Origin: an uncultured Cytophagales bacterium
GTDB taxonomy: Bacteria > Bacteroidota > Bacteroidia > Cytophagales > JAAEPT01
NCBI GenBank assembly: GCA_963849955.1
Contig: CAWKJU010000016.1
Coordinates: 81,735-145,734 of the forward strand
Direction: 5' to 3'
Length of the DNA: 64,000 bases
Of this stretch, positions 1-14,784 are shown piece by piece. Each line of letters begins with the position of its first letter. Position 1 is the first letter of the stretch. A program made the translations under genes and the position numbers. The notes beneath the pieces are model-generated. The model was not told where the DNA came from. It was given only the letters and a program-made list of their open reading frames with translations, and did no database searches.

Positions 1-42
1 GCTTACTAAAGCCATTGAAACTACAAGAATTGTTTTTTTCAT
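1..42 (-). CDS. 5' end of a signal-peptide-bearing CDS running off the left edge (partial)
   Basis: Reverse complement of 1-42 reads ATG AAA AAA ACA ATT CTT GTA GTT TCA ATG GCT TTA GTA AGC = MKKTILVVSMALVS. It is on the same strand as, and 47 nt downstream of, the 90-524 gene. Only 14 codons are visible. Confidence 0.3.
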   Translation of the reverse strand, partial: MKKTILVVSMALVS

Positions 43-89
43 TTTAGTGTATTTTATTAGTTAAACATTTGATTATTAATAAGAAATTT

Positions 90-524
90 TTATTCACTAG
101 TAATTCCTTCATGCATAAATTCGGCTTTCACTACTTTACCTTTAATCAGTAACTCAACCACACAGTGAAAAGCCGTAGAACTTGTGAGTTGAGCAGTAAA
201 AGAATATTCTCCTTTTGCATTTAGTTTTGATTCAATTTCTTGGTCGTTATAATGTATCGTTACCGTGCCAGAAATTTCTTTGTTTTCCAGAGGCTTTAAG
301 TTTGACTTATAAACGTAAAAAGTAAGCTGATCTTTTTTTAGAAATAAGTCGGTGACCATTTCTACTTTATATTTATCAGCATTACTTATCTTTCCTCTGT
401 GCGGGGCTACTTTATTAGGGGTGGTGTTCGAGGTGTTTCCATGCCCACCACTACCATGATCATGTTGTGCCATGGCAAAACAACTAGCTAAAACTAAAGG
501 GATGATTAAAATTATTTTTTTCAT
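90..524 (-). CDS. Secreted His-rich small protein, probable periplasmic metal-binding accessory protein of the efflux island
   Basis: 144-aa ORF with a signal peptide (MKKIILIIPLVLASCFAMA) followed by a His/Gly-rich stretch (QHDHGSGGHGN). It is the last gene of the metal operon. Function is inferred from context only. Confidence 0.6.
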   Translation of the reverse strand: MKKIILIIPLVLASCFAMAQHDHGSGGHGNTSNTTPNKVAPHRGKISNADKYKVEMVTDLFLKKDQLTFYVYKSNLKPLENKEISGTVTIHYNDQEIESKLNAKGEYSFTAQLTSSTAFHCVVELLIKGKVVKAEFMHEGITSE

Positions 525-564
525 TTCTATTTAATATTAAGTGTGCTTTATTTAAGTAGTTGTG

Positions 565-699
565 TCACTTGTTGTATAGTAATTGTAGAACAGCTACCCC
601 AACTATTATTAAAACCAATAGGATCCAGCCTATTTTTTTAGACCAAACTTGTAGTTTGGTAGGTGGTTTTTCATTCCCCGTTTTGCAGCATTCTTTCAT
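565..699 (-). CDS. Unlisted 44-aa small membrane protein with an N-terminal Cys-Cys motif, translationally coupled to the adaptor gene
   Basis: Hand translation gives MKECCKTGNEKPPTKLQVWSKKIGWILLVLIIVGVAVLQLLYNK*. The ATG (699-697) overlaps the TGA stop (698-696) of the upstream CusB-like gene as ATGA. It has one clear C-terminal TM helix. It is below the size cut-off of the ORF track. Confidence 0.45.
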   Translation of the reverse strand: MKECCKTGNEKPPTKLQVWSKKIGWILLVLIIVGVAVLQLLYNK

Positions 700-2426
700 T
701 TTAATGTTGATTTTACTTCACCACAAGAACTCATCGCTTGTCCGAAATAAGGGTTTTTGATTGCCTTTTCTGAGCTAATCCAATCCGCTCCTTTGTCTTT
801 ATTTGCCATTGGGCAGTGTTGTACAAAGAGTGTTTGCGTGCTAAAGTCAAACGTTTTAACCAAGTCGATCATGGTTTCAGAAATACCTATAAAAGCACTA
901 CGAACTTCTTCTATCGATTGCCAATGCTCACTGTGCTCCAGCGACTTATTTAATGTCATTTGAAAGCCCATCCACTTGTCATGAGCAGGACCTTGAAAGT
1001 TTTTCATATCAACTTCTTGAAGCGCTTTTTTGAAGTTGGCTAAATCTGTTTTAACTGTTTTGAAATCATCCTTTACCAAATCATCTTTTAGTTTTAAATA
1101 AGTGTCAGACAGTTTTTGAAGTTGTTTTTTTGCCTTATCATTAATCAGCACATCAGCAGATCGTTCCATCAAATCATCCGATTCCATAGGATTCATCATA
1201 CTTGGTTTTCCAGCTAGTTGTGCCGCTGCGTCTATACTAAACGTACCGTTAACCGCAACCTCTTCTCCTTCTTCTAAGCCTTTATTAATGACAAAGCTAT
1301 CGCCTAATGAAGGTCCTAAGACCACTTGTCGCAATTGAAAACTGACTCCTTTTTCTTCACTGGTTTTTACATAGACCACCGACTTTTCACCTGTCCACAT
1401 CACCGCTGTTTTTGGAATTACAATGGTAGCTTTTGCGCCATTTAAAGCATTTTTAAGTATGCCCGACACAAACATTTCAGGCTTAAACCGCAAGCCTTTA
1501 TTGTTGATATCAATTCTTGCTTTTGCAACGCGAGTCTTTGGATTAATTATGGGGTCTAGAAAACTTATTTTTCCTGTAAACTTTTCTCCAGGAAATGACT
1601 GAATCGTGTACTCTACTTCGTTTCCTTTTTTTACAAACGACAAATCACTTTCATACACATCAAACAACACCCAAAGTGAGGAAAGATCTGCTATGTCATA
1701 CAAACCAGCACCCTGCGTAATATAGTCACCTTGGTTTACCATTTTATTGATGACCACACCACTTTTATCGGCATAAATCGAGAAGTTCTCCTTCGCCTTA
1801 CCCGTTTGTAAGAGTTCATCTACTTGTCTATCAGAAAGTTTCCAGTTTTTCAATTTTTCTTTTGCAGCATTAAAAAGAGCGGGATTAGTCGTTTTGATTT
1901 TCTCAGCTTGAAAGAGTTCTTCTTGCGCAGAAACTAATTCTGGAGAGTATATGGAGCCAATTACTTGCCCTTTAGTAATAAACTCACCCGTGTAGTTGAC
2001 AGACAACTGTTCTACCCGCCCACCTATATGAGCGGTTTGAGCAACTACTTTTCGTTCGTCTGCTTGTATTTTACCATTCAGACGGATTTCCTTAAACGGA
2101 AGTTGTTTTTTAACTACAGCCGTTTGTACACTGGCTAGCTGCATAGCCGTTGGCGACATTTTTACTTCCAGAGGGTTTTCATCGGACTCATCACCTCCTC
2201 CAACAGGAATTAAATCCATCCCGCATATAGGGCATTGCCCTGGTTCTGGCATACGTATTTGAGGATGCATACTACATGTCCATATTTCGTTTTTTGATTC
2301 TTCAATTTGCTGATGTGCTGATGTATTGTCTTGATTTTTTGATGGGATAATTAGCCAGCCTATTATTATTCCAGCTACTAGGGTAGCACCTACTAAAAAC
2401 CATTTATTATTTATTACTTTTTTCAT
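696..2426 (-). CDS. Efflux RND periplasmic adaptor (CusB/MFP family) with an N-terminal Cys-rich metal-binding motif and a C-terminal DUF3347-like domain
   Basis: 576 aa with an N-terminal TM anchor. The motif CSMHPQIRMPEPGQCPICGMDL is the same CxMHP...CPxCGMDL motif as in the neighbouring ATPase. The central part is barrel-sandwich/beta-barrel MFP-like. The C-terminal part (HCPMANKDKGADWISSEKAIKNPYFGQAMSSCGEV) is typical of DUF3347. Confidence 0.9.
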   Translation of the reverse strand: MKKVINNKWFLVGATLVAGIIIGWLIIPSKNQDNTSAHQQIEESKNEIWTCSMHPQIRMPEPGQCPICGMDLIPVGGGDESDENPLEVKMSPTAMQLASVQTAVVKKQLPFKEIRLNGKIQADERKVVAQTAHIGGRVEQLSVNYTGEFITKGQVIGSIYSPELVSAQEELFQAEKIKTTNPALFNAAKEKLKNWKLSDRQVDELLQTGKAKENFSIYADKSGVVINKMVNQGDYITQGAGLYDIADLSSLWVLFDVYESDLSFVKKGNEVEYTIQSFPGEKFTGKISFLDPIINPKTRVAKARIDINNKGLRFKPEMFVSGILKNALNGAKATIVIPKTAVMWTGEKSVVYVKTSEEKGVSFQLRQVVLGPSLGDSFVINKGLEEGEEVAVNGTFSIDAAAQLAGKPSMMNPMESDDLMERSADVLINDKAKKQLQKLSDTYLKLKDDLVKDDFKTVKTDLANFKKALQEVDMKNFQGPAHDKWMGFQMTLNKSLEHSEHWQSIEEVRSAFIGISETMIDLVKTFDFSTQTLFVQHCPMANKDKGADWISSEKAIKNPYFGQAMSSCGEVKSTLK

Positions 2427-2475
2427 AGTCGTTTCATTTTTATAAGTCCTTTTTTAATAAGTATAATCAGCAAAT

Positions 2476-2545
2476 CTCGCCTTCGTCAGTGTCCCCACTG
2501 ACGAACTAAGCGGTAAATGTTTGTGGGGACACAAACATTGGCGAG
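2476..2545. promoter_or_regulatory. 70-nt element of perfect stems (three-way junction) containing a 10-4-10 palindrome TTCGTCAGTG-N4-CACTGACGAA, 50 nt upstream of the adaptor gene start
   Basis: P1 is ctcgcc 2476-2481 paired with ggcgag 2540-2545. P2 is 2482-2491 paired with 2496-2505. P3 is aatgtttgtg 2516-2525 paired with cacaaacatt 2530-2539. All pairings were verified by hand. Function is unknown (operator or RNA element). Confidence 0.4.
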
Positions 2546-2615
2546 TTAACGCGAACTCAAAACTTATTTCAACAATCTCATTCCTCTGTATCATTATTCT
2601 TTAATTTTTATAAAC

Positions 2616-2717
2616 AATCAAAATCAGTCATTAGAACATCGATTCATCAACACATTAGCACATCAAACAATCAGCACATTAGCACATCAGCACATCAGCA
2701 CATCAATTAATCAACTA
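2616..2717 (-). repeat. Phased 8-nt tandem array (coding-strand NNNNTGAT/TAAT) starting on the copA-like stop codon
   Basis: Eleven indel-free octamers span 2630-2717: attagaac atcgattc atcaacac attagcac atcaaaca atcagcac attagcac atcagcac atcagcac atcaatta atcaacta. The last unit contains the TAG stop (2715-2717). Degenerate units extend to about 2616. Confidence 0.85.
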
Positions 2718-5216
2718 ACCAATACTCTGAACCCGCAACCTCAATGCATTACCAATCACCGAAACCGAACTGAAACTCATCGCCAGGGCTGCTATCATCG
2801 GAGATAACAAGACACCAAAGAACGGAAAGAGCAAACCCGCTGCAATTGGAATACCTAAGACGTTATATGCCAAAGCAAAAAACAGGTTTTGTTTGATGTT
2901 GCTCATCACTTTCATACTTAGGTTTCTCGCTTTCACGATACCGTGTAAGTCGCCTTTTACCAATGTGATGGAAGCACTTTCGATGGCTACATCGGTGCCC
3001 GTTCCCATAGCAATACCGACATCACTTTGAGCCAATGCAGGGGCATCGTTTATTCCATCACCCGCCATGGCTACTATCCGTCCGTTTTCTTGTAATTTTT
3101 TTACTTCGTTTAGTTTGTCTTCAGGTAACATGCCTGCTTTGAAATCTGCTAAGTTGAGTTCGTTGGCAACGGCTTGCGCGGTGTTGAAATTATCACCCGT
3201 CAACATGATTACCTCAATCCCACTTTCTTGCAATTCTTTGATTGCCTGAGCACTGGTTTGTTTTATTTTATCACCGATAACCACATAACCAATTACCTGA
3301 TTTTCTACCGATAAGTAAGAAACCGTTTTACCTTGTTTTTGAAATTTTTCAGCTGTTTGCGTAGCTTGTTCATCAATAGTAGCCTCGGAATGCTGCATCA
3401 TTTTATCATTACCCAAGGCTACTTTTTTTCCCTCAATTTTTCCTTCTACACCTTTTCCAGTTACTGCATTAAAATCTTCTAATTTGAGCAACTCCACTTC
3501 TTTTTCTTTACCATATTTCACAGTGGCTTGCGCCAAAGGATGTTCACTCTGTTGATTCAGCGAAGCAATCAACTGTAATACTTTTTCTTCTGTATATGCA
3601 TCCCCGAAAACGCCAATAGTGTCTACAGTTGGTTTTCCTTCAGTGATTGTTCCTGTTTTATCGATGATCAAAACATCCACTTTATTCATTTTTTCTAATG
3701 CTTCAGCACTCTTAATTAAGACTCCGTTTTGAGCTCCTTTACCTACTCCAACCATCACAGACATAGGCGTAGCCAAACCTAAAGCACAGGGGCATGCGAT
3801 AATTAAAACCGCAATCGCATTGACCAGTGCATACACATAAGCTGGCTCTGGACCATAAATAGCCCAAACCGCAAAGGTGATGGCTGAAATAATGACTACG
3901 ATAGGCACAAAATAACCAGAGACTTGATCGGCCAATTTTTGAATGGGTGCTTTACTTCTACTGGCGTTGTTTACCATCTCAATAATTTGAGAAAGCAAGG
4001 TATCAGAACCCACTCGCTCGGCTTTCATCAGAAAAGATTGGTTACCATTAATGGTTCCGCTGCTTACTTTGTCATCGGCAGTTTTGTTCACAGGTATCGG
4101 CTCGCCCGTAATCATGGATTCATCTATAGATGTGCTTCCCTCAGTAAGAATTCCATCCACTGGAATTTTCTCTCCTGGCTTTACCCGAAGAATATCACCG
4201 ACTTGAATAGCATCTATAGAAATCGTTTCTTCTTTTCCATCCGTAACTCGAACAGCTTTGTTCGGAGCTAGTTTTAGTAGTGATTTTACTGCGTCAGTTG
4301 TTTTACTGTGCGCTCGGGCTTCCAGCACTTGTCCCATTAAAACTAAGGTCAAAATCACAGAGGCTGCTTCAAAATAGACATGCACACTACCAGATTCTGT
4401 TTTAAATTGGTCAGGGAAAAAATCAGGAAACAACATGCCAAACAAACTAAACAACCACGCTAATCCCGCTCCGATGCCAATGAGTGTGAACATATTTAAA
4501 TTCCAAGTGACCACTGAGCGATAGGCTCTTTTGAAGAACATCCACGTAGCATAAAATACTACAGGCAAGGAAAGTGTGAATTGTACCCAATTCCAGTATT
4601 TCAGTTCCATCAGTTGGTACAATGGATTGTTAGGGACCATCTCCGACATAGCAATCAAAAAGATAGGCACCGTAAAAGCGGCTGCTATCCACAACTTTTT
4701 TGAGAGTTTTTTGTAGGTTTTTTCTTCTGCCGAAGCTTCTGGGTTTTTTGGGACTAAATCCATTCCGCATTTCGGGCATGCACCAGGTCCATCTTGCACT
4801 ACTTCTGGATGCATTGGACACGTATATTCTTCTGATGAGGTAGGTTTTGTACTTGCCTGTGCAACTAAGTCCATTCCACAAACAGGACAATCACCAGGTT
4901 TGTCATACGTTTTATCACCCTCACAATGCATCGGACAATAATAAACACCTTTACCTGAGGTAACAGGTGCTGATTTTTTCTTAGGCACGTCAACAATTTT
5001 TTCACTTGGAAGATGAATGGAATACCGCCCGCCATCATTTTTTAAAGCTTCTTGAAAAGTCTCAATAGGAATATGAGTTTCCATTTCGATGGTGGCTTCT
5101 GCCTTTTCCAAATCCACCACTGCATTAGAAACTCCTTCAATTCCTTGCAGCGTTTTTTCTACATGCCCCCGACACCCATTACAGGTCATTCCTTGTATTT
5201 TATAAGTATATATCAT
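2715..5216 (-). CDS. copA: Copper-translocating P1B-type ATPase (CopA-like)
   Basis: 833 aa. It has an N-terminal HMA domain (GMTCNGCRGHVEK) and two CPMH...CPxCGMDL metal-binding repeats. It also carries the TM CPC motif (ACPCALGLATP), the DKTGT phosphorylation site, the GDGINDAP hinge, and the YN (ALAYNVLGIP) and MSxSS (AMSFSSVSV) signatures of the Cu(I) subgroup. Confidence 0.95.
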   Translation of the reverse strand: MIYTYKIQGMTCNGCRGHVEKTLQGIEGVSNAVVDLEKAEATIEMETHIPIETFQEALKNDGGRYSIHLPSEKIVDVPKKKSAPVTSGKGVYYCPMHCEGDKTYDKPGDCPVCGMDLVAQASTKPTSSEEYTCPMHPEVVQDGPGACPKCGMDLVPKNPEASAEEKTYKKLSKKLWIAAAFTVPIFLIAMSEMVPNNPLYQLMELKYWNWVQFTLSLPVVFYATWMFFKRAYRSVVTWNLNMFTLIGIGAGLAWLFSLFGMLFPDFFPDQFKTESGSVHVYFEAASVILTLVLMGQVLEARAHSKTTDAVKSLLKLAPNKAVRVTDGKEETISIDAIQVGDILRVKPGEKIPVDGILTEGSTSIDESMITGEPIPVNKTADDKVSSGTINGNQSFLMKAERVGSDTLLSQIIEMVNNASRSKAPIQKLADQVSGYFVPIVVIISAITFAVWAIYGPEPAYVYALVNAIAVLIIACPCALGLATPMSVMVGVGKGAQNGVLIKSAEALEKMNKVDVLIIDKTGTITEGKPTVDTIGVFGDAYTEEKVLQLIASLNQQSEHPLAQATVKYGKEKEVELLKLEDFNAVTGKGVEGKIEGKKVALGNDKMMQHSEATIDEQATQTAEKFQKQGKTVSYLSVENQVIGYVVIGDKIKQTSAQAIKELQESGIEVIMLTGDNFNTAQAVANELNLADFKAGMLPEDKLNEVKKLQENGRIVAMAGDGINDAPALAQSDVGIAMGTGTDVAIESASITLVKGDLHGIVKARNLSMKVMSNIKQNLFFALAYNVLGIPIAAGLLFPFFGVLLSPMIAALAMSFSSVSVIGNALRLRVQSIG

Positions 5217-5306
5217 TTTGTTTCTCTTTTTTGGTTATTAATAAATTCTTAAATCCAACTCAACTTCGTTAATGTCCTGAAGATGATGTTTGTGAAGACC
5301 CCCGCC

Positions 5307-5330
5307 TTCGTCAGTATCCTCACTGACGAG
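5307..5330. promoter_or_regulatory. Second copy of the CGTCAGT...ACTGACG palindrome, 91 nt upstream of the copA-like start
   Basis: tcgtcagt (5308-5315), loop atcctc, then actgacga (5322-5329). Positions 5304-5329 are 24/26 identical to 2479-2504 (gccttcgtcagtNtccNcactgacga). Confidence 0.4.
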
Positions 5331-5341
5331 CACGTATAAAA

Positions 5342-5461
5342 ATCAACCCATCAACCCATCAGCACATCAAACAATCAGCTCATCATCAAATCAACCCATC
5401 ATCACATCAACTCATCAGCACATTAACATATCAAACAATCAGCACATCATCAAATCATTCC
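5342..5461 (-). repeat. Phased 8-nt tandem array (15 units, coding-strand NNNNTGAT) starting on the tolC-like stop codon
   Basis: The 120 bp parse with no indel into 15 octamers that all begin AT(C/T)A. The last unit, atcattcc (5454-5461), contains the TGA stop at 5455-5457. Confidence 0.9.
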
Positions 5462-6687
5462 CCTTTAGCAGTCAAGTAATCGATTTGAGCCAATGCGATA
5501 TAGAAATTTTTTACCGCTGTTACCCCTGCCGTTTCATAAGCAAGAAGTTGCTGTTGCATGCGCAGAATTTCCTCAAAATCTTTACCAGAATTGCTGTAGG
5601 ATACATAGAGTAACTCCACGACCTGCTGCGTTTTTTTTGATTGAGTTGCATACAATTCGCTCATCTGCCTAGATTTTTCTAACTCATACCACGCCATTTC
5701 ATATTGGCTTGTAAGTCTATTTTCTATGACTATTTTTTGAGACGTAAGCGCGGTTTCCATCAATGTTGCTTCTTTTCTTAGCGCTTTATATTTTCCTCTA
5801 TAAATAGGTAAACTCATAGAAACCATTGGCATAATCGCGTCTTGTCCGTTTTGTGGAATAGATACATCGGGTCTTTTAGCGATCACTACATAATCGATAC
5901 CTACTCCAAATTGTGGTCTTCCTTGTTTTTCTGCCAAAGATTCATTGATATGAGCTGCTTGAATTTGTAAATCCAAAGCTTGTAATGTAGGATTTGCTGC
6001 GAAAAGACTGTCTTGGGTAGTACTTATGGGTTTTTCGCTCAATTCTAAAGAATCCTCAATAACTACTGAAAGTGAATCATTGCGGCTGAGCAAGCGATTA
6101 AATGCCACTTCTAATGGCTTTTTCTTGTCTTTCAACAATTGAATATCGGTTTTCAATTCATCCATCATAATATCTACACGAAGCGCGTCAACCAAAGCAC
6201 TTTTACCATTTGAAAACGCGATGGTCGCTAACTCTTTATAAGTCGTTAAAATGGCTAAGTTCTTTTTTTGCAGTCGCAACTGTGCCTCCAGTTCATAGAG
6301 GGGATAATATGCTGATTTCACTTGAAAGTAAAGCTCGTTTTGATCGTCCAAAAAGAGTTGATACTTCGCATCTGCATTCAACGAAGCGACATTACCGCTA
6401 GCTTTCAGTGTCCCAAACCAAGGAAACATTTGAGTCAAAGAAATACGTGCCTGCTGCTGACCAACGCGTGTTTCAATCATTCGCCCAAAAGCACTTACAG
6501 ATAAGTTAGGGTCTGGTAATGCTCTCATTTGTGATATTTGCTGCAAGGCTACTTCAAACTCTGCATGAGATGCTTTTAAGTTGGGGTTGTTCTCCGCAGC
6601 TTCCTTTAGGTAATCGTCTAGGGTTTGAGAGACACATGGAGATATCGTTGAAATAAATAGAAATAAATAGAAATAGATAGCCTTCAT
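5455..6687 (-). CDS. TolC-family outer membrane efflux protein (OMF)
   Basis: 410 aa with a signal peptide. It has the two-repeat alpha/beta OMF-like pattern (LDDYLKEAAENNPNLKA ... PQFGVGIDY) and sits between the RND pump and adaptor genes. Confidence 0.85.
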   Translation of the reverse strand: MKAIYFYLFLFISTISPCVSQTLDDYLKEAAENNPNLKASHAEFEVALQQISQMRALPDPNLSVSAFGRMIETRVGQQQARISLTQMFPWFGTLKASGNVASLNADAKYQLFLDDQNELYFQVKSAYYPLYELEAQLRLQKKNLAILTTYKELATIAFSNGKSALVDALRVDIMMDELKTDIQLLKDKKKPLEVAFNRLLSRNDSLSVVIEDSLELSEKPISTTQDSLFAANPTLQALDLQIQAAHINESLAEKQGRPQFGVGIDYVVIAKRPDVSIPQNGQDAIMPMVSMSLPIYRGKYKALRKEATLMETALTSQKIVIENRLTSQYEMAWYELEKSRQMSELYATQSKKTQQVVELLYVSYSNSGKDFEEILRMQQQLLAYETAGVTAVKNFYIALAQIDYLTAKGE

Positions 6688-7067
6688 TTTTTTGCATTTT
6701 GTTTTGTGACCGCGATGAAATTATTGAGTTTAATTTCAAGAGGTTTGTGAATTTCTTGAAGTGAATCAAATATGGTTTGAGTAATAATTTTTCTTTCCAA
6801 CATTAGTTCTGCCCAATGTTGACAAGCTTCAGATAGTGAGCCTCTTGAGAAATGATAAAACCGTGCTTTTTCTAAGTAGTGATACCGAGCATATCCTTCA
6901 GCGATATTAGCACCAACCGAATCCGCAGACCGAATAAATTGATCACCAATTATTTTTTTCTGTTCATAATTAAGATTTGAATAAATATCCCACGCCAACG
7001 AAGAAAGCTTTCGAGCAAGCTGATAGACTTGCAAATCCTTTAAGGCTATATATGTCGTTGTTTCCAT
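6684..7067 (-). CDS. Four-helix-bundle protein (23S rRNA intervening-sequence protein family)
   Basis: 127 aa. The pattern DLQVYQLARKL...QFIRSADSVGANIAEGYAR...ARFYHFSRGSLSE matches the remembered signature of the TIGR02436-type family. Its TGA stop overlaps the tolC-like ATG as ATGA (6684-6687). Confidence 0.8.
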   Translation of the reverse strand: METTTYIALKDLQVYQLARKLSSLAWDIYSNLNYEQKKIIGDQFIRSADSVGANIAEGYARYHYLEKARFYHFSRGSLSEACQHWAELMLERKIITQTIFDSLQEIHKPLEIKLNNFIAVTKQNAKK

Positions 7068-7079
7068 TTTATTTAATAT

Positions 7080-10000
7080 TCAATTTATATCAACCTTATT
7101 TCTTTGAGCTTTTTTAAGTGAATATTCCTCTCTTAAAGCAAACAACACCGGCACAATAAAGTAAGAACTGATGTCGATAATCATTCCCCCAAAAGCAGGT
7201 ATCGCCATAGGAATCATGATATCCGATCCTCTTCCTGTTGAGGTGAAAATGGGTAGTAGTGCAATAATTGTGGTTGTGGTAGTCATCACGCAGGCTTTTA
7301 TTCTTCGGTGTCCACCTTCAATTGCTGCTTTTCTGATTTCTTCTACCGAAGTCGTTTTTCTGTCCTTAAATGTTTGCGTCAAGTATGTTCCCATCAATAC
7401 ACCATCATCGGTTGCTAAACCAAACAAGGCAATAAATCCTACCCAAACGGCCACACTGAGATTAATGGGCTGCATTTGAAATAAGTCCCTCATATTTGTG
7501 CCGAATAAATCGAAATTCATAAACCACGGCACTCCCCACAGCCAGAGCATAATAAAACCACCACTAAATGCTACAGATATACCTGTAAAAATCATGAGTG
7601 AGGTAGTTACTGAACGAAATTGGAAATAAAGAATTAAGAAGACGATTCCTAATACAAGAGGCACTACAATAGTAAGTCGTTTTTCAGCACGGATTTGATT
7701 TTCATAACTACCAGAGAACTTGTAGCTAATTCCAGCAGGGACTATCAGTTCTTTCTGATCTATTTTATTCTGAATAAAGCGCTGCGCTTCTTCGACTACA
7801 TCCACTTCTGCATAACCCGCTTTTTTATCCAACAAGACATAACCCACCAAAAAGGTGTTTTCACTTTTTATCATTTGAGGGCCAGCCACGTATTCAATAT
7901 CTACTAAATCCCCAAGGGGAACTTGAACACCTGTTGGCGTTGGGATATAGATTTTTGCAATACTACTTGGATCCTCCCTTAATTCTCTTGGATATCGAAC
8001 TCTAACAGGAAACCTCTCTCTACCTTCAACGGTAGAGGTGATTTGCATTCCACCGATAGCTATTTCTATTGTTTGCTGTACATCTTCAATGGTTAGTCCA
8101 TACCGAGAAATGGCATCTCTATCGATATTGAGTTGCAGATAGGGCTTCCCGACTATTCGATCAGCAAATACGGCTTCACTTTTTATCGAAGGCACTTCTT
8201 TTAAAATAGCTTCTAATTTTACTCCGAAATCTTCGATCGTTTGAAGGTTTGGCCCATACACTTTAATCCCCATTGGTGCTCTCATACCTGTTTGGAGCAT
8301 GATTAAGCGCGTTTCAATCGGTTGTAATTTGGGAGCAGAAGTAACCCCAGGTATTTTTGTTACCCGTACAATTTCATTCCAGATGTCATCAGGTGTTTTA
8401 ATTTCTTCACGCCAGTTTCTGAAATAATTACCTGAAGCATCCTCGATTAAACTAATAGAGCTAATTCCTTGTACCAGTGCCTCATTATTAGACACAGTAT
8501 CGCCAGTAGTTAAAATAAATCGATTTTCATTATCTGTTTTAAACCGTTCGCGATGCCCTTTTTTGTTTAAAGCATATTCTGGTTTGTAGTTGATAATGTT
8601 TTCATACATCGAAATGGGTGCTGGATCCAACGCGGTTTCTGACCTCCCCAATTTACCAACTGCCAGTTCTACTTCAGGAATATTAGCGAGTAGCATATCC
8701 AACTGCTGTACTACACGTTTACTTTGTTCAACTCCTGCATGAGGCATTGAGGTGGGCATCAATAAAAAGCTACCTTCATTCAAAGAAGGCATAAACTCTT
8801 TACCAACACCTGGAAAGGTATGCGATAAGCCACTCCAAACAGACGTAGTTCTAATGTTTAAATGTACAGCATCAAACCCAGTTGCCACAAAGCCAAATAG
8901 TGAATTAAAGCCTAACCAAATGGTAATTCCCAGTACAACTAAAAAGGTAGGAATGGAAAGAAAAGCCAATTTATGATCTAAACACCATGCTAAAATTTTT
9001 CTGTAATAAAGATCTAATAAGGTAAACGTGCCGAGCACTAACGTAACCATTAAAGCAACAAACAGAAAGTTGTAGGTTAATGATTTTGAAGCTCCAAGTG
9101 GCATCCAATAATTCGCCAATAAACTTGTCACTGAAATTACGGCTACAATTACGGATAGATTATTAGTCAACCAATTTTTCTTAGGGCTGTACTCTTGCAC
9201 GAACCAAGCAATTCCGAAAGCCATTAAAGTCAAGCCTGACCAAAGCGAAACCCAAATAGACGTAGCTAAGCCAGAAAGAATTAACAGGACATTAAAAAGT
9301 TGTCCTCTTCTATTTTTATTGATTTTAATGCCGAAAAACCAATGAGCGAAACTAGGAAGAATGAGCAAAGCAACAATTAAAGAAGCGATGAGCGCAAAAG
9401 TTTTTGTGTATGCCAAAGGTCCAAACAACTTTCCTTCGGCAGCTTCCATGGTGAATACAGGTAGAAAACTGACCACGGTTGTGGCAACGGCTGTTACAAT
9501 AGCTGAACTCACTTCAGCCGCAGCGTTATAAATAGTATCGACTAATTTTTGTTCGGGCGGAGCATCTTCAATATGTTGAATCACGTTTTCGGAAAGCACA
9601 ATTCCTAAATCGACCATCGTACCAATGGCAATCGCAATACCTGAAAGAGCTACAATGTTGGCATCAATATGAAAATAGCGCATCGCAATAAATACCATCA
9701 ACACTGCAATAGGCAATAAACTCGCAATAAGTATAGATGCTCTAAGATTCAGCACCATCACAATAATCACAAGTATGGTAATGAGTATTTCAAGCGAAAG
9801 TGCTTCTTCTAAAGTGCCTAAAGTTTCATTGATGAGTTGTGTTCTATCATAAAAAGGGACAACAGTCAACTGACTTTCAACACCATTTGCCAATATTTTC
9901 TTAGGCAATCCTGGGGCAATCTCTTTTATGCGTTCTTTAATATGATTGATGACCGCTAAAGGATTAGAACCATATCGGGCGATAACAACTCCCCCAACTA

Positions 10001-10898
10001 CTTCTGCTCCATCTTTATCTAAACCGCCTCGCCTCGGTGCGGGACCAAGTGACACTACACCAATATCTTTAATTCGAATGGGTACATTTTCTTCTATCCC
10101 AACTACAGCTTTTTCTATGTCCTCTATCGATGTGATATAACCCAAACCACGAACAAGGTATTCCACTTGATTAATTTCGATGGTTTCTGCACCTACATCT
10201 CTATTCGATGATTTTACTGCTTCCATCACTTTGTAAAGCGGGATATTGTATGCTCTTAGGGCGTCTGGATTTACATCTATTTGATATTCTTGCACATAAC
10301 CTCCAATAGAAGCTACTTCAGAAACATCGTCTACACCGTTTAATCCATATTTTACATAAAAATCTTGCACCTTTCTTATTTCATGCAAGTCCCAACCGCC
10401 TGTAGGGTTTCCTTCTTTATCCCGACCTTCTAAGGTATACCAATACACCTGTCCGAGTGCCGTAGCGTCTGGGCCTAAGGTGGGCTTTACGTCTTGGGGA
10501 AGTAACCCTGGCGCCAGTGAATTGAGTTTTTCCAACACCCGAGAGCGCGACCAGTAAAATTCAATATCATCTTTAAAAATGATATTGATTATTGACGCAC
10601 CAAACATAGAGGTACAGCGGATCGATTTTACACCGGGAATACCTAAAAGAGTCGTAGTAAGTGGATAGGTGATTTGATTTTCAACATCTTGAGGCGACCT
10701 CCCAGACCAGTCAGTAAATACAATTTGTTGATTTTCACCAATATCTGGAATAGCATCAACAGGCACGGGGTCGGAGGGTAAGAACCCAGTTTTCCAGCCG
10801 AATGGAGAAGTCACTAAACCCCAACCGATAATTAATATGAGGAATAAAAGCGTTACTAACTTGTTATCAAGAAAGTATCGAATGATACGATTTAACAT
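7080..10898 (-). CDS. CusA/CzcA-family heavy-metal efflux RND permease (unusually long, 1272 aa)
   Basis: It has the 12-TM RND architecture with two large periplasmic loops and typical HME-RND N-terminal sequence (MLNRIIRYFLDNKLVTLLF...). An extra hydrophobic block at about aa 525-640 and an extended second periplasmic loop account for the extra length. Confidence 0.95.
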   Translation of the reverse strand: MLNRIIRYFLDNKLVTLLFLILIIGWGLVTSPFGWKTGFLPSDPVPVDAIPDIGENQQIVFTDWSGRSPQDVENQITYPLTTTLLGIPGVKSIRCTSMFGASIINIIFKDDIEFYWSRSRVLEKLNSLAPGLLPQDVKPTLGPDATALGQVYWYTLEGRDKEGNPTGGWDLHEIRKVQDFYVKYGLNGVDDVSEVASIGGYVQEYQIDVNPDALRAYNIPLYKVMEAVKSSNRDVGAETIEINQVEYLVRGLGYITSIEDIEKAVVGIEENVPIRIKDIGVVSLGPAPRRGGLDKDGAEVVGGVVIARYGSNPLAVINHIKERIKEIAPGLPKKILANGVESQLTVVPFYDRTQLINETLGTLEEALSLEILITILVIIVMVLNLRASILIASLLPIAVLMVFIAMRYFHIDANIVALSGIAIAIGTMVDLGIVLSENVIQHIEDAPPEQKLVDTIYNAAAEVSSAIVTAVATTVVSFLPVFTMEAAEGKLFGPLAYTKTFALIASLIVALLILPSFAHWFFGIKINKNRRGQLFNVLLILSGLATSIWVSLWSGLTLMAFGIAWFVQEYSPKKNWLTNNLSVIVAVISVTSLLANYWMPLGASKSLTYNFLFVALMVTLVLGTFTLLDLYYRKILAWCLDHKLAFLSIPTFLVVLGITIWLGFNSLFGFVATGFDAVHLNIRTTSVWSGLSHTFPGVGKEFMPSLNEGSFLLMPTSMPHAGVEQSKRVVQQLDMLLANIPEVELAVGKLGRSETALDPAPISMYENIINYKPEYALNKKGHRERFKTDNENRFILTTGDTVSNNEALVQGISSISLIEDASGNYFRNWREEIKTPDDIWNEIVRVTKIPGVTSAPKLQPIETRLIMLQTGMRAPMGIKVYGPNLQTIEDFGVKLEAILKEVPSIKSEAVFADRIVGKPYLQLNIDRDAISRYGLTIEDVQQTIEIAIGGMQITSTVEGRERFPVRVRYPRELREDPSSIAKIYIPTPTGVQVPLGDLVDIEYVAGPQMIKSENTFLVGYVLLDKKAGYAEVDVVEEAQRFIQNKIDQKELIVPAGISYKFSGSYENQIRAEKRLTIVVPLVLGIVFLILYFQFRSVTTSLMIFTGISVAFSGGFIMLWLWGVPWFMNFDLFGTNMRDLFQMQPINLSVAVWVGFIALFGLATDDGVLMGTYLTQTFKDRKTTSVEEIRKAAIEGGHRRIKACVMTTTTTIIALLPIFTSTGRGSDIMIPMAIPAFGGMIIDISSYFIVPVLFALREEYSLKKAQRNKVDIN

Positions 10899-10902
10899 GG
10901 TT

Positions 10903-10974
10903 TGATGTGTTGATTATTTGATGTGCTAATTAAATAATGTGCTGATGTGTTGATTAAATAATGTGCTGATTTTT
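10903..10974. repeat. Phased 8-nt array in the opposite orientation (TGATNNNN on the + strand), immediately upstream of the RND pump start
   Basis: Nine indel-free octamers: tgatgtgt tgattatt tgatgtgc taattaaa taatgtgc tgatgtgt tgattaaa taatgtgc tgattttt. Confidence 0.85.
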
Positions 10975-11010
10975 GAAGACATAGGTATTCTCCAAACTAA
11001 AAGTAATGAT

Positions 11011-11058
11011 ATCGACACATCATCGAATCACCACATCAGCACATTAATAAATCAAATA
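11011..11058 (-). repeat. Phased 8-nt array (ATCANNNN on the + strand) starting on the stop codon of the HYC/CC/PP-motif gene
   Basis: Six octamers: atcgacac atcatcga atcaccac atcagcac attaataa atcaaata. The last contains the TGA stop at 11052-11054. Positions 11032-11046 are the exact reverse complement of 10935-10949. Confidence 0.85.
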
Positions 11059-11462
11059 AGGAAAGACTGGTGTAATACGGGAAGATCTCGCTGAACGAGT
11101 GGTGGATTGTAAGCTAAAAATGAAGGTTGTTTTTCAACTGCAACCTCAGGTAAAAGGAATGAATAAAAGAAAGTAGCGACAAAAACTGGATGAAGATTCA
11201 CTTCAACATTTACCAATTGAAAATCGTCATCCACTTGAAAAGCGTTGAAATGATTTTCACAGCAATTTTTCTTTTTGATAGCAGTTCCATGTGTTGCGCA
11301 AGTAGAAGAAGTTGCTATCTTCATTCCACAACTCAGTTTATGTTGCGTGAGTTGCACATCAGATTTAATTGCTTTACCATAACAAAAATGCGTATTTACC
11401 CCAAACCCCACAGATGTGGCTAGGAAATAAATGGCAAGCGTGATGGAAAAGAATTTTTTCAT
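11052..11462 (-). CDS. Secreted Cys-rich protein with ordered H-F/Y-C, C-C and P-P motifs (resembles the 'HYC_CC_PP' family name as I remember it); first gene of the metal island
   Basis: 136 aa with a signal peptide. The ordered motifs are THFCYG, KKNCCENHF and AYNPPLV. Family assignment is from memory and needs an HMM check. Confidence 0.6.
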   Translation of the reverse strand: MKKFFSITLAIYFLATSVGFGVNTHFCYGKAIKSDVQLTQHKLSCGMKIATSSTCATHGTAIKKKNCCENHFNAFQVDDDFQLVNVEVNLHPVFVATFFYSFLLPEVAVEKQPSFLAYNPPLVQRDLPVLHQSFLI

Positions 11463-11575
11463 GTGTCAAATATACAAATTATTATTTAATAACAATTAAA
11501 TCACAACTTTTTTTACCCACTCTAAATAATTTATTCAATCACAAAACTACTCTTCGATTCAATCGCTTGATTGCT

Positions 11576-11607
11576 ACTTTGACAAAGTTTTAAGACTTTG
11601 TCAAAGT
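11576..11607. repeat. REP-like palindrome, 5' copy (actttgacaaagt-tttaag-actttgtcaaagt)
   Basis: The 13-bp perfect arms are 11576-11588 and 11595-11607, extendable to 14 bp with t11575/a11608. Confidence 0.85.
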
Positions 11608-11623
11608 AATAAATTTTTCAACT

Positions 11624-12262
11624 ATGAATCTCAACAAACCTTTAGAAACAGGTTGTTTTTATCATATTTATAATCGTGGAATCAATGGGGAAGATCTTTT
11701 TAAAAGTGAAAAAAGCTATACGCATTTCTTGAAAAAATATGACCAATACCTTTCTCCGGTTGTGGATACTTTTGCCTACTGTTTACTTAAAAATCATTTT
11801 CATATTCTAATTAGAGTAAAAGAAAAGGATGCATTACAACATTTTTTCAAAGAACAATATCCCGAAAAAAAACAAGAAGCAGAAAATGGCTTACACAGTA
11901 TCGATTTTATTGTAAGTAAACAATTCGCCCGACTCTTTAGTAGCTTTACTCAAACGATAAATAAAATACATCAAAGAAAAAGTTCTCTTTTTGATACTCC
12001 TTTTAAACGGATACATGTAGCAAATGATGTTTACTTCACTCAGTTAATTTGGTATATACATTTCAATCCTCAAAAACATCACTTTGTTACTGATTTCAGA
12101 GAATATCCTCATTCCTCCTATCATAGTCACTTATCAACTAAACAGACAAAACTGTATAGGCAAGAAGTATTAAGTTGGTTTGGGGGTAAAAGTAATTATG
12201 AAACATTTCATAATGGTCAACAATCAGAATTTGAGATCAGAAACTTGATTGTTGAATTTTAA
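11624..12262 (+). CDS. REP-associated tyrosine transposase-like protein (IS200/IS605 Y1 HUH superfamily, RayT-like)
   Basis: 212 aa. It begins FYHIYNRGINGEDLF, has an HUH motif (HFHILIRV) and a C-terminal catalytic-Tyr helix (LIWYIHFNPQKHHF). No TnpB partner is present. Confidence 0.75.
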   Translation: MNLNKPLETGCFYHIYNRGINGEDLFKSEKSYTHFLKKYDQYLSPVVDTFAYCLLKNHFHILIRVKEKDALQHFFKEQYPEKKQEAENGLHSIDFIVSKQFARLFSSFTQTINKIHQRKSSLFDTPFKRIHVANDVYFTQLIWYIHFNPQKHHFVTDFREYPHSSYHSHLSTKQTKLYRQEVLSWFGGKSNYETFHNGQQSEFEIRNLIVEF

Positions 12263-12265
12263 GAT

Positions 12266-12297
12266 ACTTTGACAAAGTCTTAAGACTTTGTCAAAGT
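12266..12297. repeat. REP-like palindrome, 3' copy (perfect 32-bp palindrome actttgacaaagtcttaagactttgtcaaagt)
   Basis: The arms are 12266-12278 and 12285-12297. The central cttaag is itself palindromic, so the whole 32 bp is self-complementary. Confidence 0.85.
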
Positions 12298-12368
12298 GTT
12301 TATCATAAAAAACTTTTAATACTTCATCAATAATTTTAATTTCCTACTATTATTAAATTCCTCTAGCT

Positions 12369-13058
12369 ATGAAAAAAATCTCACTCTCCGCACTTATTCT
12401 ATTGCTATTTAGCTCTGTATGGGCACAAAACTGCTCCTACTACCCTATGAAAAAAGGGACTATGTTAACGTACGAGTCATATAATTCTAAGGACAAATTA
12501 GAATCAAGTTCTAAAACAGAGCTTTTAAGCGTTTCTACATCAGGAAATAAAACTACCGCAACTGCTGAGGTAGCCTCTTATGATAAAAAAGGAGAGGAAG
12601 TTTATAAAACTGAAGTTCCTATAGTATGTAATAAGGGCGAATTAATTATTGACATGAAGTCATTGATTCCAGAGGAGACCTTGGAAGGTTTTAAAAATAT
12701 GGATGTGGATATTACGACCGATAATTTAACTATCCCTAAAGACGCTGCTCCTGGACAAAAGTTAAATGATGGTCACATGTCTATTTCGGTTTCAACTTCA
12801 GGTATGTCAATGGGTACGTTTAAATTTGATATCACCAACAGGTTAGTTGAAGGAAAAGAAAAAATAACGGTAGAAGGTAAGGAATATAGTGCTTTGAAAA
12901 TCACCTATGATTTTGCTGCTAAAGCAATGATTATAAACAAACAATATAAAGTTGCCGATTGGTATGTGGAAGGTTTGGGCATGGTGAAATCAGTTACGTA
13001 TAAGTCAGACGGGAATAGTATAGTTAGTTACACCCTTTTAAAAGAATTTAATTTCTGA
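12369..13058 (+). CDS. Secreted hypothetical protein
   Basis: 229 aa with a signal peptide (MKKISLSALILLLFSSVWA). It looks beta-rich and has no motif I recognise. Confidence 0.6.
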   Translation: MKKISLSALILLLFSSVWAQNCSYYPMKKGTMLTYESYNSKDKLESSSKTELLSVSTSGNKTTATAEVASYDKKGEEVYKTEVPIVCNKGELIIDMKSLIPEETLEGFKNMDVDITTDNLTIPKDAAPGQKLNDGHMSISVSTSGMSMGTFKFDITNRLVEGKEKITVEGKEYSALKITYDFAAKAMIINKQYKVADWYVEGLGMVKSVTYKSDGNSIVSYTLLKEFNF

Positions 13059-13519
13059 TGATTCAAGAAATAATAGTTACCTACTTACACTTTCTTGGCT
13101 TCATTAGCATATTTGTGGCTATTGTTGTCGAAAAAGTGTTGTTAAAAAAAGAACTAACATCAACTAACGCTAACACAATCAGAAAGTTTGATGCCTTGTA
13201 TGGCGTTGCTGCAATCATTATGTTAGCCACTGGTTTTTCAAAAATGTATTGGTTTGGTAAGGGTATGGATTACTATATGCACAATCATATTTTTTGGACC
13301 AAAATATTGATTTTCACCATTGTTGGCTTACTTTCTATTTATCCGACCATCACGTTTATGAAATGGAAAAAGGTATTGAAAGAAAAGAGCACTATTACTT
13401 TATCTGACAAGCAATACAATTTAATTTCAAAAACGCTGACTGCCGAACTAGTATTAATGATTTTGATTCCTCTTTGTGCCCATTTTATGGCGAGGGGCTT
13501 TGGTTATATTGCGAATTAG
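13058..13519 (+). CDS. Small integral membrane protein (DUF2214-like, 4 TM)
   Basis: 153 aa with four hydrophobic segments. Its start overlaps the upstream stop as TGATG (13056-13060). The family name is from memory. Confidence 0.55.
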   Translation: MIQEIIVTYLHFLGFISIFVAIVVEKVLLKKELTSTNANTIRKFDALYGVAAIIMLATGFSKMYWFGKGMDYYMHNHIFWTKILIFTIVGLLSIYPTITFMKWKKVLKEKSTITLSDKQYNLISKTLTAELVLMILIPLCAHFMARGFGYIAN

Positions 13520-14784
13520 GCTACTGACTTCTCCAAGTTAAAAAGATCTTGAAGTACTTCTACTAGAGACTCAGAGTCACCGCGCTTGCAGGCAGCTTTT
13601 AATTCTAACACTGGTAATTTTATTATTTTCTGAATCATTCCCGCAGTTATTGCCTCAACTACCTCAGATTGCTGCTCGTTGAGCTTCCCAAAATATCGTG
13701 ACAACTCTTGCTTCCTGATGTCTTCTAAGGCTGTTTTCAGCTGTTGAATGATTGGGAAGACATCTTGCTCTTGTTTCCAAGAACTAAACTCAGCAACACT
13801 TTCTTCTATAATTTGATTCACAGCCGGTATTTCAGATTTTCGCATCGCCAAGGCTGTTTGTACTTTTTCGTTTAAATGATCTACATTCAGTAGGGTTACC
13901 GCCTTGTTAGATTCTACATCTAAATCAACGTTTCTTGGTACACCCAGATCAATGATTAAAGTTGGGTTAAGTGAAGGAGTAAAATGGCTTTTGTTCAACA
14001 ACGGCTTATCCATCTGCACCGAACTAATCACCACATCCATGGTTGACAAGTATTGCTGTAGTGAACTAAAATCTTCTGATTTGAATCCATATTCTGCTGC
14101 CAAAGCATCAGATTTTTCTTTGCTTCGGTTAAACAAATATACTTCTCCTTCAAACTCGCGAAGGTTGCAAGCCACGTTGCTGCCAATTTCTCCTAAGCCT
14201 ACAATAGCAATTTTAGGGTTGGACTTATTTTTAATAAATTTCTTTGTTTGCTCTACAGACACAGATGCCACGGAAGCATTCCCGTCTTTAAAAACAGTCT
14301 GATTGGCGATGCGTTTATTCGTAAAAAAGATGGTATGTAAAAGCCGATGCAAATAAGCGGTACACATATTTAAATCAGCAGTTAGCTGATACGCTCGTTT
14401 TACCTGATTAATGATTTGAATATCCCCCAACACCATGGAGTCTAAACCTAGAGCCACTTCAAACAAATGTTTGATGGCATTATCTCCTTCAAATTTTAAG
14501 AAATATGGGGAGATGGATGTCGAGGTTAAGCCTTTAAGAATACTTAAATAACTAATTAATTGTGCAGACAAATCGAACTCAGAATAATAATAAACCTCCG
14601 TTCGATTACAGGTTGATAACACCAACACATCTTCTAGTTGAAAGATGTCTTTGCAGTTCCTCAAAAATGCAGCAGTAATATCATCATCCATACTCACTTG
14701 TTCCCGAATAGATAGTGGGGCTGACTTGTAAGAAATGGTAAGGGTTCTAAATTGATTCATGTGCTTTTGAGTTAGCAGGTTCAA
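13516..14784 (-). CDS. hemA: Glutamyl-tRNA reductase
   Basis: 422 aa. It has the catalytic-Cys motif LSTCNRTEVY, an NADPH-binding glycine motif (IAIVGLGEIG) and a C-terminal dimerisation helix. Confidence 0.9.
   Translation of the reverse strand: MNLLTQKHMNQFRTLTISYKSAPLSIREQVSMDDDITAAFLRNCKDIFQLEDVLVLSTCNRTEVYYYSEFDLSAQLISYLSILKGLTSTSISPYFLKFEGDNAIKHLFEVALGLDSMVLGDIQIINQVKRAYQLTADLNMCTAYLHRLLHTIFFTNKRIANQTVFKDGNASVASVSVEQTKKFIKNKSNPKIAIVGLGEIGSNVACNLREFEGEVYLFNRSKEKSDALAAEYGFKSEDFSSLQQYLSTMDVVISSVQMDKPLLNKSHFTPSLNPTLIIDLGVPRNVDLDVESNKAVTLLNVDHLNEKVQTALAMRKSEIPAVNQIIEESVAEFSSWKQEQDVFPIIQQLKTALEDIRKQELSRYFGKLNEQQSEVVEAITAGMIQKIIKLPVLELKAACKRGDSESLVEVLQDLFNLEKSVA

Follow-up and report, generated by a model that had tools for sequence, protein, structure and literature searches.

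The 64,000-nt stretch of DNA from an uncultured Cytophagales bacterium analyzed here (the window) carries an array of 15 phased octanucleotide units, the focal array, which begins on the stop codon of a tolC-like gene and occupies part of the spacer towards a copA-like gene. Our analysis indicates that this array is probably a degenerate octanucleotide member of the long simple sequence repeats (LSSR), i.e., a microsatellite-like satellite in an intercistronic spacer, which would have been born by slippage and filtered by selection on translation signals. The anatomy of the array, its lack of conservation in related operons, the generic distribution of similar arrays in other genomes and their polarity relative to genes are seen directly, and a slippage origin combined with a selective filter would account for them. 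A preliminary description of the window had kept a neutral microsatellite as a possible explanation, and this comes closest to what the evidence supports. The array and the stop codon on which it begins are located as follows.

5342..5461, minus strand: focal array of 15 phased octamers, which takes up 120 of the 238 nt of the tolC-copA spacer, at its tolC end
5455..5457, minus strand: TGA stop of the TolC-family gene, which falls in the array's first unit in the mRNA direction

Each unit reads AT(C/T)A-N4 on the plus strand and N4-T(G/A)AT on the transcribed minus strand. The parse of 5342-5461 into 15 octamers without any indel, as first described, was reproduced exactly; 14 of the cores read ATCA, the remaining one ATTA. 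Tandem Repeats Finder reports a period of 8 with 14.5 copies and 70% matches for this tract, in addition to a higher-order period of 40, and only one pair of adjacent units is identical. The variable parts contain 35% C on the plus strand and are mostly xCAC or ACCC. The phased five-unit ATYA-N4 pattern has 22 overlapping matches in the window compared to 0.00 in 100 dinucleotide-preserving shuffles, and a chance origin of the phased pattern is excluded. A degenerate tail (ACGAGCAC GTATAAAA) is found at 5326-5341, and the related array at the copA stop has a similar tail at 2617-2645 with indels and a core mismatch. Such tails are as expected for decaying satellites.

LSSR with units of 5-11 nt are a described class of prokaryotic repeats (Mrazek 2007, as summarised in PMC4679880). 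The focal array belongs to this class in that its head-to-tail units fall within 5-11 nt and extend for longer than chance, and in that a unit which is not a multiple of 3 occupies a non-coding site. In the summary, LSSR likewise consist of short head-to-tail units far beyond chance and are non-coding if the unit is not a multiple of 3; they occur sporadically and in a lineage-specific manner, are blamed on polymerase slippage, and are found in genomes that hold many of them with differing units. However, heptamers are the commonest LSSR units according to the same summary, whereas the unit here is 8 nt, and the focal array combines strong degeneracy (70% matches) with perfect phase and an invariant tetramer core. 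Bacteroidota are also not in the list of LSSR-rich genomes that the summary gives.

Reading of the focal array on the mRNA strand confirms what had been noted on its stops and starts. The only long open reading frame (ORF) ending at the array is 5455..6687 on the minus strand (410 aa), whose TGA corresponds to the TCA of the last unit on the plus strand, and the first UGA of the array is thus the tolC-like gene's own stop. Stops are found at +0, 24, 48, 69, 72, 75 and 96 in frame 0, at +16, 40, 43, 64, 88 and 112 in frame 1, and at +5, 8, 32, 53, 56, 80 and 104 in frame 2. They rotate through the three frames, and every frame of the transcript is closed at intervals of at most 24 nt. The mRNA strand contains 14 AUG, nine of which are of the UGAUG/UAAUG junction type, in agreement with the nine AUG-creating junctions and mini-ORFs reported before, and the TGATG overlap between two genes at 13056-13060 is also present. 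The complementary strand has no ATG, GTG or TTG and only four G in 120 nt. A coding role was rejected, as neither strand of the array has an ORF of at least 20 aa and the His-rich plus strand translations are without start codon.

The spacer RNA of the focal array has no significant fold of its own (z = -1.6), and an Rfam search of positions 1-14000 gave nothing at gathering score. A weak C/D-box snoRNA match at 5365-5419 (19.8 bits vs 44) reflects UGAUGA/CUGA strings. The terminator scan found no intrinsic terminator on the minus strand near the arrays, and because no terminator-like site is nearby, the arrays are most simply intercistronic. The promoter scan, whose models do not include Bacteroidota promoters, found no promoter-like spacing that depends on the focal array. 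Between the end of the array and the copA ATG lie 126 nt, including a palindrome of a 7-bp stem. A phase-variation contingency locus, as suggested by the earlier mention of a slippage-prone tract, would need a near-perfect tract within a reading frame or between promoter elements, where a change in unit number switches a gene, and was rejected, since the array has 70% matches and lies after the tolC stop and 126 nt from copA. Several further candidates had no support that could be put to a test and were dropped, namely C/D-box kink-turns, Chi-like octamers, Rho utilisation sites in the C-rich strand, resemblance to the 3' tail of 16S rRNA (AUCACCUCC) and the TTGAT target of the IS200/IS605 elements, for example ISDra2.

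The focal array is not conserved in related operons. We fetched operons for TolC relatives with 55-73% identity to the TolC of the window. The named TolC relatives belong to Flavobacteriales and Cytophagales, a pattern that points to a source within the Bacteroidota, probably in the Flavobacteriales. Nine distinct orthologous tolC junctions have gaps of 1-57 nt, compared to 238 nt in the window, and an array is present in 0/9. Therefore, the focal array is a lineage-specific expansion and not a conserved part of the operon. The values at individual junctions include the following.

L001: TolC 72% identical, tolC-to-next-gene gap of 57 nt, with only 2-3 degenerate units
L123: TolC 73% identical, tolC-to-next-gene gap of 31 nt
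L002, L124, L132, L135, L136 and L137: TolC 55-59% identical, tolC-to-next-gene gaps of 1-2 nt

L001 and L002, the closest relatives by CzcA, carry a small array of like unit types at the czcA-tolC junction, with the N4-TRAT strand as the sense strand (TRAT-sense). The units of L001 (2259-2298) are ATGGTGAT GTGTTGAT TGTTTGAT ATGCTAAT GATTTGAT and follow the czcA stop, and those of L002 (4988-5028) are GTGTTGAT GTGACGAA TGTTTGAT CTGCTAAT GAACTGAT; L002 has one additional unit compared to L001. While czcA of L001 stops before the array, czcA of L002 reads through three units and stops in the fourth. These junctions are a direct example of gain or loss of units and of an in-frame stop in the array ending the protein. 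The di-unit TGTTTGAT ATG(C/T)TAAT is common to the focal array and the L001 czcA-tolC junction.

To place the array among other genomes, one genome per species (185,579 species) was scanned for six or more phased ATYA-N4 units, which gave at least 120 loci. Genes at these loci were called by a simple greedy ORF procedure, Bacteroidota were assigned by record title, and the survey counts given here and below are those among the matches listed. At least 73 of the 120 listed loci are from Bacteroidota, with Saprospiraceae, Chitinophagaceae, Cytophagales, Flavobacteriales and Bacteroidales represented, and the same units occur in several unclassified records. Cultivable carriers among the listed matches include Chryseobacterium oleae DSM 25575 (L041), Hymenobacter daecheongensis DSM 21074 (L032), Pontibacter beigongshangensis (L075), Dyadobacter linearis (L062) and Empedobacter stercoris (L088). 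Bacteroidota make up about a tenth of the species in the survey taxonomy, from which a several-fold enrichment would follow. Arrays from other phyla are mostly near-perfect; at least three distinct units are present in 54/84 Bacteroidota arrays compared to 15/42 others (p = 0.004). Further arrays with unrelated units, 28 of heptamers and 31 of octamers (for example TTCGTTA x19, AGCATCC x23 and GAAGGTAT x30), are found at these loci as well, and the survey genomes are simply rich in tandem repeats of 7-8 nt. A tblastn search with seven proteins of the metal island in which the focal array lies found no homologue beside an array in the 120 listed loci. A metal-specific element was therefore rejected, and the link to metal genes that the preliminary description had drawn is not supported.

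The survey arrays follow rules of position and orientation. Nearly all of them are intergenic. Both neighbours could be called for 66 Bacteroidota arrays, of which 50 are flanked by co-directional, 9 by convergent and 7 by divergent genes. The sense strand of the 50 co-directional arrays is the ATYA strand in 30 and the TRAT strand in 20. A gene is found within 12 nt on the 3' side of the ATYA strand in 37/77 cases compared to 12/74 on the other side (p = 3e-5). TRAT-sense arrays abut a stop codon, placed in or beside the first unit, in 23/35 cases compared to 8/42 for ATYA-sense arrays (p = 5e-5). Start codons show the opposite tendency, as ATYA-sense arrays lie 0-9 nt from a start in 14/42 cases and TRAT-sense arrays in 4/32 (p = 0.055), and this placement of ATYA-sense arrays is seen in Bacteroidota (14/42) and not in other phyla (0/15, p = 0.012). 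The variable part of start-abutting arrays has 41% A and 10% G. The fraction of units that start with G and create UGAUG is 0.46 in stop-abutting and 0.54 in start-abutting arrays (p = 0.94). The positional bias anticipated earlier is thus real for the stop-rich orientation at stop codons, while an overall bias towards the coding orientation is not seen.

The window itself obeys both polarity rules. It contains only four such arrays, all related, three of which lie on stop codons and the inverted one on the czcA start, and the three sister arrays are listed below. Recurrence after two more genes, and nowhere else in the window, had been described; the arrays at 2646-2717 and 11019-11058 bear this out, but the inverted fourth array at 10899-10970 had been missed.

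2646..2717, minus strand: sister array of 9 units in the focal orientation, which includes the copA TAG stop (2715-2717)
11019..11058, minus strand: sister array of 5 units in the focal orientation, which includes the HYC_CC_PP TGA (11052-11054)
10899..10970, minus strand: sister array of 9 units in the opposite orientation, in which the mRNA reads AT(C/T)A-N4; ends 1 nt before the czcA ATG (10898)

These arrays are all placed in the metal operon, the genes of which are given in the order of transcription.

11462-11052, minus strand: HYC_CC_PP
10898-7080, minus strand: CusA/CzcA
7067-6684, minus strand: four-helix-bundle protein (TIGR02436 / PF05635, family of 23S rRNA intervening-sequence proteins)
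6687-5455, minus strand: TolC (TIGR01844 TolC family, E 2.8e-12)
5216-2715, minus strand: CopA, a copA-like P-type ATPase
2426-696, minus strand: CzcB/CusB adaptor
524-90, minus strand: 144-aa protein

A probable course of events can be outlined from these data. The array would have arisen and grown within the lineage of this operon as 8-nt units were added through replication slippage or unequal exchange, and such growth would have expanded the tolC-to-next-gene junction, which measures 1-57 nt in relatives, to its 238 nt. Which arrays survive would then be decided by a selection on translation signals that depends on orientation, as the positional bias of the survey arrays partly shows. With N4-TRAT as the sense strand, an array may abut or invade the 3' end of a gene and gain or lose units, and the protein would be extended by a few residues at most. 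Because this strand closes every frame within 24 nt, the stops of tolC, copA and HYC_CC_PP would all come to lie in the first unit. The TRAT strand would stay off the copA start (126 nt) because it is G/U-rich and full of AUG, which would be avoided near Bacteroidota starts. The complementary strand, which is A/C-rich, free of AUG and almost without G, would in turn be tolerated right up to a start codon that does not use a Shine-Dalgarno site, with the czcA array as an example.

Published data on translation initiation fit such a filter. Flavobacterium johnsoniae does not use Shine-Dalgarno sites; low structure and upstream adenines favour initiation, and AUG is depleted from -21 to -1 (PMC6847099). 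In other phyla, repeats would have to stay a dozen bases or more off the start to leave room for a Shine-Dalgarno site, which matches the 0/15 above. The focal array would probably act as a passive spacer, which uncouples translation of tolC and copA with all frames closed, and not as a dedicated device. Repeat turnover itself may preserve the ATYA core, as units with a shared core would stay able to misalign and be copied. The fit to stop codons and the all-frame stops are properties of the class, and follow from which repeats can persist beside genes.

The preliminary description knew of no element of this form, yet in addition to LSSR, as far as the summary cited above covers them, two heptamer families are precedents. 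TAACTGA heptamer direct repeats occur in Beggiatoaceae, Cyanobacteria and five Bacteroidetes (MacGregor 2015, PMC4679880), and relatives in Flavobacteriia have an otherwise identical gene neighbourhood without the repeat. A translational role has been proposed for them (PMC4679880). Like the arrays described here, they are intergenic, provide stops in three frames in one orientation and sometimes overlap the upstream stop codon; they also adjoin start codons where Shine-Dalgarno sites are rare, and close relatives with an identical order of genes are without them (PMC4679880). However, the unit is 7 nt and its copies are near perfect, compared to the 8-nt AT(C/T)A-N4 unit, and the orientation differs: the stop-containing orientation lies upstream of starts in TAACTGA arrays, whereas here it lies on stops and the stop-free strand on starts. 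The stop-containing orientation is accordingly not found a few nt before a start at the focal array (126 nt), and is found there in only 4/32 survey cases.

The GGGGA(C/T)T heptamers of Xanthomonas and Nostoc (Rehm et al. 2015, PMC4692102) show the same polarity, with the G-rich strand in sense within 50 bp after a stop or overlapping it, and in antisense within 50 bp upstream of an ORF. They also prefer spacers between co-directional ORFs (PMC4692102). G-quadruplex formation, a preference for 4 units and a high GC content of the host genomes set them apart from the present units, which are without G-runs. The searchable literature gave no description of octamer arrays of the ATYA-N-CAC type in Bacteroidota, or of the unit strings themselves.

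Several observations weigh against a satellite that only slips and decays. The core departs from the majority base at 1/60 positions compared to 24/60 elsewhere in the focal array (Fisher p = 1e-7, in a register picked after the fact), and the sole core change, C to T, retains a stop on the opposite (mRNA) strand. The 120 nt of the array are without any indel, although a neutral satellite should mutate evenly. Across orders, a few unit types recur: ATYA-GCAC is found in 12 Bacteroidota loci, TCAC units in 10, and CCAC and ACAC in 6 each, while ACCC and AACA also recur. The taxa that share this vocabulary include Hymenobacter, Pontibacter, Niabella, Chitinophagaceae, Bacteroidales and Flammeovirgaceae, and GCAC is observed 18 times compared to 5.2 expected under a position-independent model. 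Since the survey was selected on ATYA, it is unable by itself to show that the core is special. If the extra unit is set aside, the units of L001 and L002 agree at 29/32 positions, compared to an identity of only 44-52% at third codon positions of the flanking genes; this alignment was chosen after the fact, and a limited vocabulary could give convergence. Additionally, all four arrays of the window are located within 11.5 kb of the 64 kb. The core invariance, the vocabulary common to several orders (GCAC, ACCC, AACA) and the 29/32 identity lie outside simple slippage and decay.

The two opposed arrays before czcA, at 10899-10970 and 11019-11058, form an inverted repeat of 42 nt with 81% complementarity. 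The predicted hairpin (10890-11065, minus strand) has an energy of -50.1 kcal/mol (z = -6.25) and joins the HYC_CC_PP stop region to the czcA start region, with the two opposed octamer arrays as its stem. Spacers between HYC_CC_PP/DUF8199 and czcA are predicted to fold end to end in four operons including that of the window even though their sequences are unrelated, with z = -4.64 in L132 (5650-5785), -3.76 in L124 (6095-6215) and -2.35 in L002 (1085-1205). This modelling suggests that the HYC_CC_PP-czcA spacer is a conserved structured junction, and the hairpin might perhaps couple translation of czcA to that of the upstream ORF. The junction is the one place where arrays plausibly do something specific, which would concern the sister arrays and not the focal array. 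Two inverted ATYA arrays 50-250 nt apart in one spacer also occur in the survey loci L039, L041, L064, L077 and L082, which is the same geometry as 10899-10970 and 11019-11058 in the window.

More specific roles for the focal array have to be weighed against this background. A binding array, in which a protein would coat the repeat cooperatively with one subunit per ATYA (or UR-AU) core, by analogy either on DNA as ParG does or on RNA as a TRAP-type or OB-fold protein might, would make sense of the invariant tetramer with a variable 4-nt spacer, the strict 8-nt phase and the direct and inverted sets. The layout is exactly that of the ParG operator and centromere sites, OF and parH of plasmid TP228, where ACTC tetramers with 4-bp spacers stand in direct and inverted sets at an 8-bp period (PMC3130281). 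The 8-12 ParG boxes are degenerate as well (PMC3130281), and both the unit vocabulary common to several orders and the 29/32 identity of L001 and L002 would be expected of binding sites. However, the ParG spacers are AT-rich and the sites lie upstream of plasmid parFG, which provides the known ribbon-helix-helix binder (PMC3130281), whereas the arrays here have C-rich spacers, sit in chromosomal operon spacers and adjoin unrelated genes in many genomes. Relatives also differ by their loss or gain, no gene of the island codes for a ribbon-helix-helix protein, ParA or another candidate binder, many arrays of 7 and 8 nt whose units are unrelated share the survey loci, and the Rfam search was without match. 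Binding of this kind therefore appears improbable. A wider proposal is that ATYA-N-CAC arrays could be a Bacteroidota-wide module, in which a conserved protein or RNA factor reads the tetramer at 8-nt phase and the arrays act as AUG-free leaders, frame-closing insulators and stems of coupling hairpins such as the one before czcA; this is unlikely. If it were true, arrays in one orientation would drive Shine-Dalgarno-independent initiation as structure-free leaders.

The role that the preliminary description had put forward, an all-frame ribosome stop after tolC, perhaps combined with a UGAUG start-stop chain towards copA in an organism that does not use Shine-Dalgarno sites, would be a dedicated translational insulator or relay. 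The closure of all frames within 24 nt, the nine UGAUG/UAAUG junctions and the three operon arrays that begin on a stop codon agree with it, as does the stop-rich orientation abutting stops in 23/35 cases. The C/T change as the sole core variation keeps a stop, and TGAT and TAAT are reportedly strong four-base stop signals in E. coli (Poole et al. 1995). However, the stop-free orientation is at least as common (30 vs 20 co-directional arrays) and includes the czcA array, stop-abutting arrays show no excess of units that form UGAUG (p = 0.94), and the focal array ends 126 nt short of copA with a palindrome intervening. Together with the nine orthologous tolC junctions, which have gaps of 1-57 nt and no array, this makes a dedicated device decidedly improbable. 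Alternatively, the focal array could be the distant partner of the czcA-leader array in an RNA-RNA pairing module that regulates or processes the polycistronic mRNA, as it is 72% complementary over 69 nt to 10902-10970. The -50 kcal/mol hairpin of the opposed arrays at 10899-11058 (z = -6.25), the end-to-end folds of orthologous DUF8199-czcA spacers with unrelated sequences (z -4.64, -3.76 and -2.35) and the inverted pairs in L039, L041, L064, L077 and L082 would fit such pairing. However, a partner for the czcA-leader array exists locally, at 48 nt, whereas 5.4 kb separate it from the focal array downstream, the focal spacer RNA is without significant structure, survey arrays are mostly single, and relatives are without such an array at the tolC junction. 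We regard long-range pairing as having a very low probability.

Other features of the operon adjoin the arrays or the genes between them. A 27-nt element, CGCCTTCGTCAGT-N6-ACTGACGA, with a palindrome of 7-8 bp (CGTCAGT-N6-ACTGACG(AAGGCG)) has exactly two copies in the 64 kb, at 2478-2504 and 5303-5329, each placed after an array and before the start of the following gene (copA, czcB). Beside the 2478-2504 copy lies a second palindrome, AATGTTTGTGGGGACACAAACATT (2518-2541), and beside the other a half copy of it. The 27-nt element could be an operator or an RNA hairpin. A mobile composite of array and hairpin was rejected, as the palindrome has two copies in the window and a metagenome-wide scan gave two chance matches in unrelated coding sequence. 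With 0.37-0.39, the interval 1-12 kb does not stand out in GC content against the remaining window (0.36-0.38), and a foreign island was rejected as well. At the immediate upstream edge of the metal operon (11575-12297), an ORF at 11624-12262 on the plus strand resembles a REP-associated tyrosine transposase (NF047646, E 2e-11, below cut-off) and is flanked by 33-nt copies of TACTTTGACAAAGTyTTAAGACTTTGTCAAAGT, each of which is palindromic.

The four-helix-bundle gene between czcA and tolC is present in the window (6684-7067), L132 (9618-10004) and L133 (142-528) and absent from L001, L002 and L124. A survey array, L036 3737-3784, also adjoins a four-helix-bundle gene of the TIGR02436 / PF05635 type. 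Within the coding sequence of the CzcB-like ORF (696-2426), short octamer runs are found at 1143-1162 (ATCAGCAC ATCAGCAG) and 2308-2324 (TGCTGATG TGCTGATG), one per orientation, and the latter encodes ..TSAHQQ.. near the N-terminus. These runs may be due to chance or may be traces of an array taken into the gene.

The main outcome of the analysis is clarification, in that a striking pattern belongs to the under-studied LSSR class. The survey suggests that Bacteroidota are rich in intergenic arrays of 7-8 nt units, and because these bacteria do not use Shine-Dalgarno sequences, the arrays can reach start codons. The start-abutting arrays are thereby a natural experiment on what leader sequences require, and their interest would rise if the core conservation and the shared vocabulary reflect a specific binding partner.

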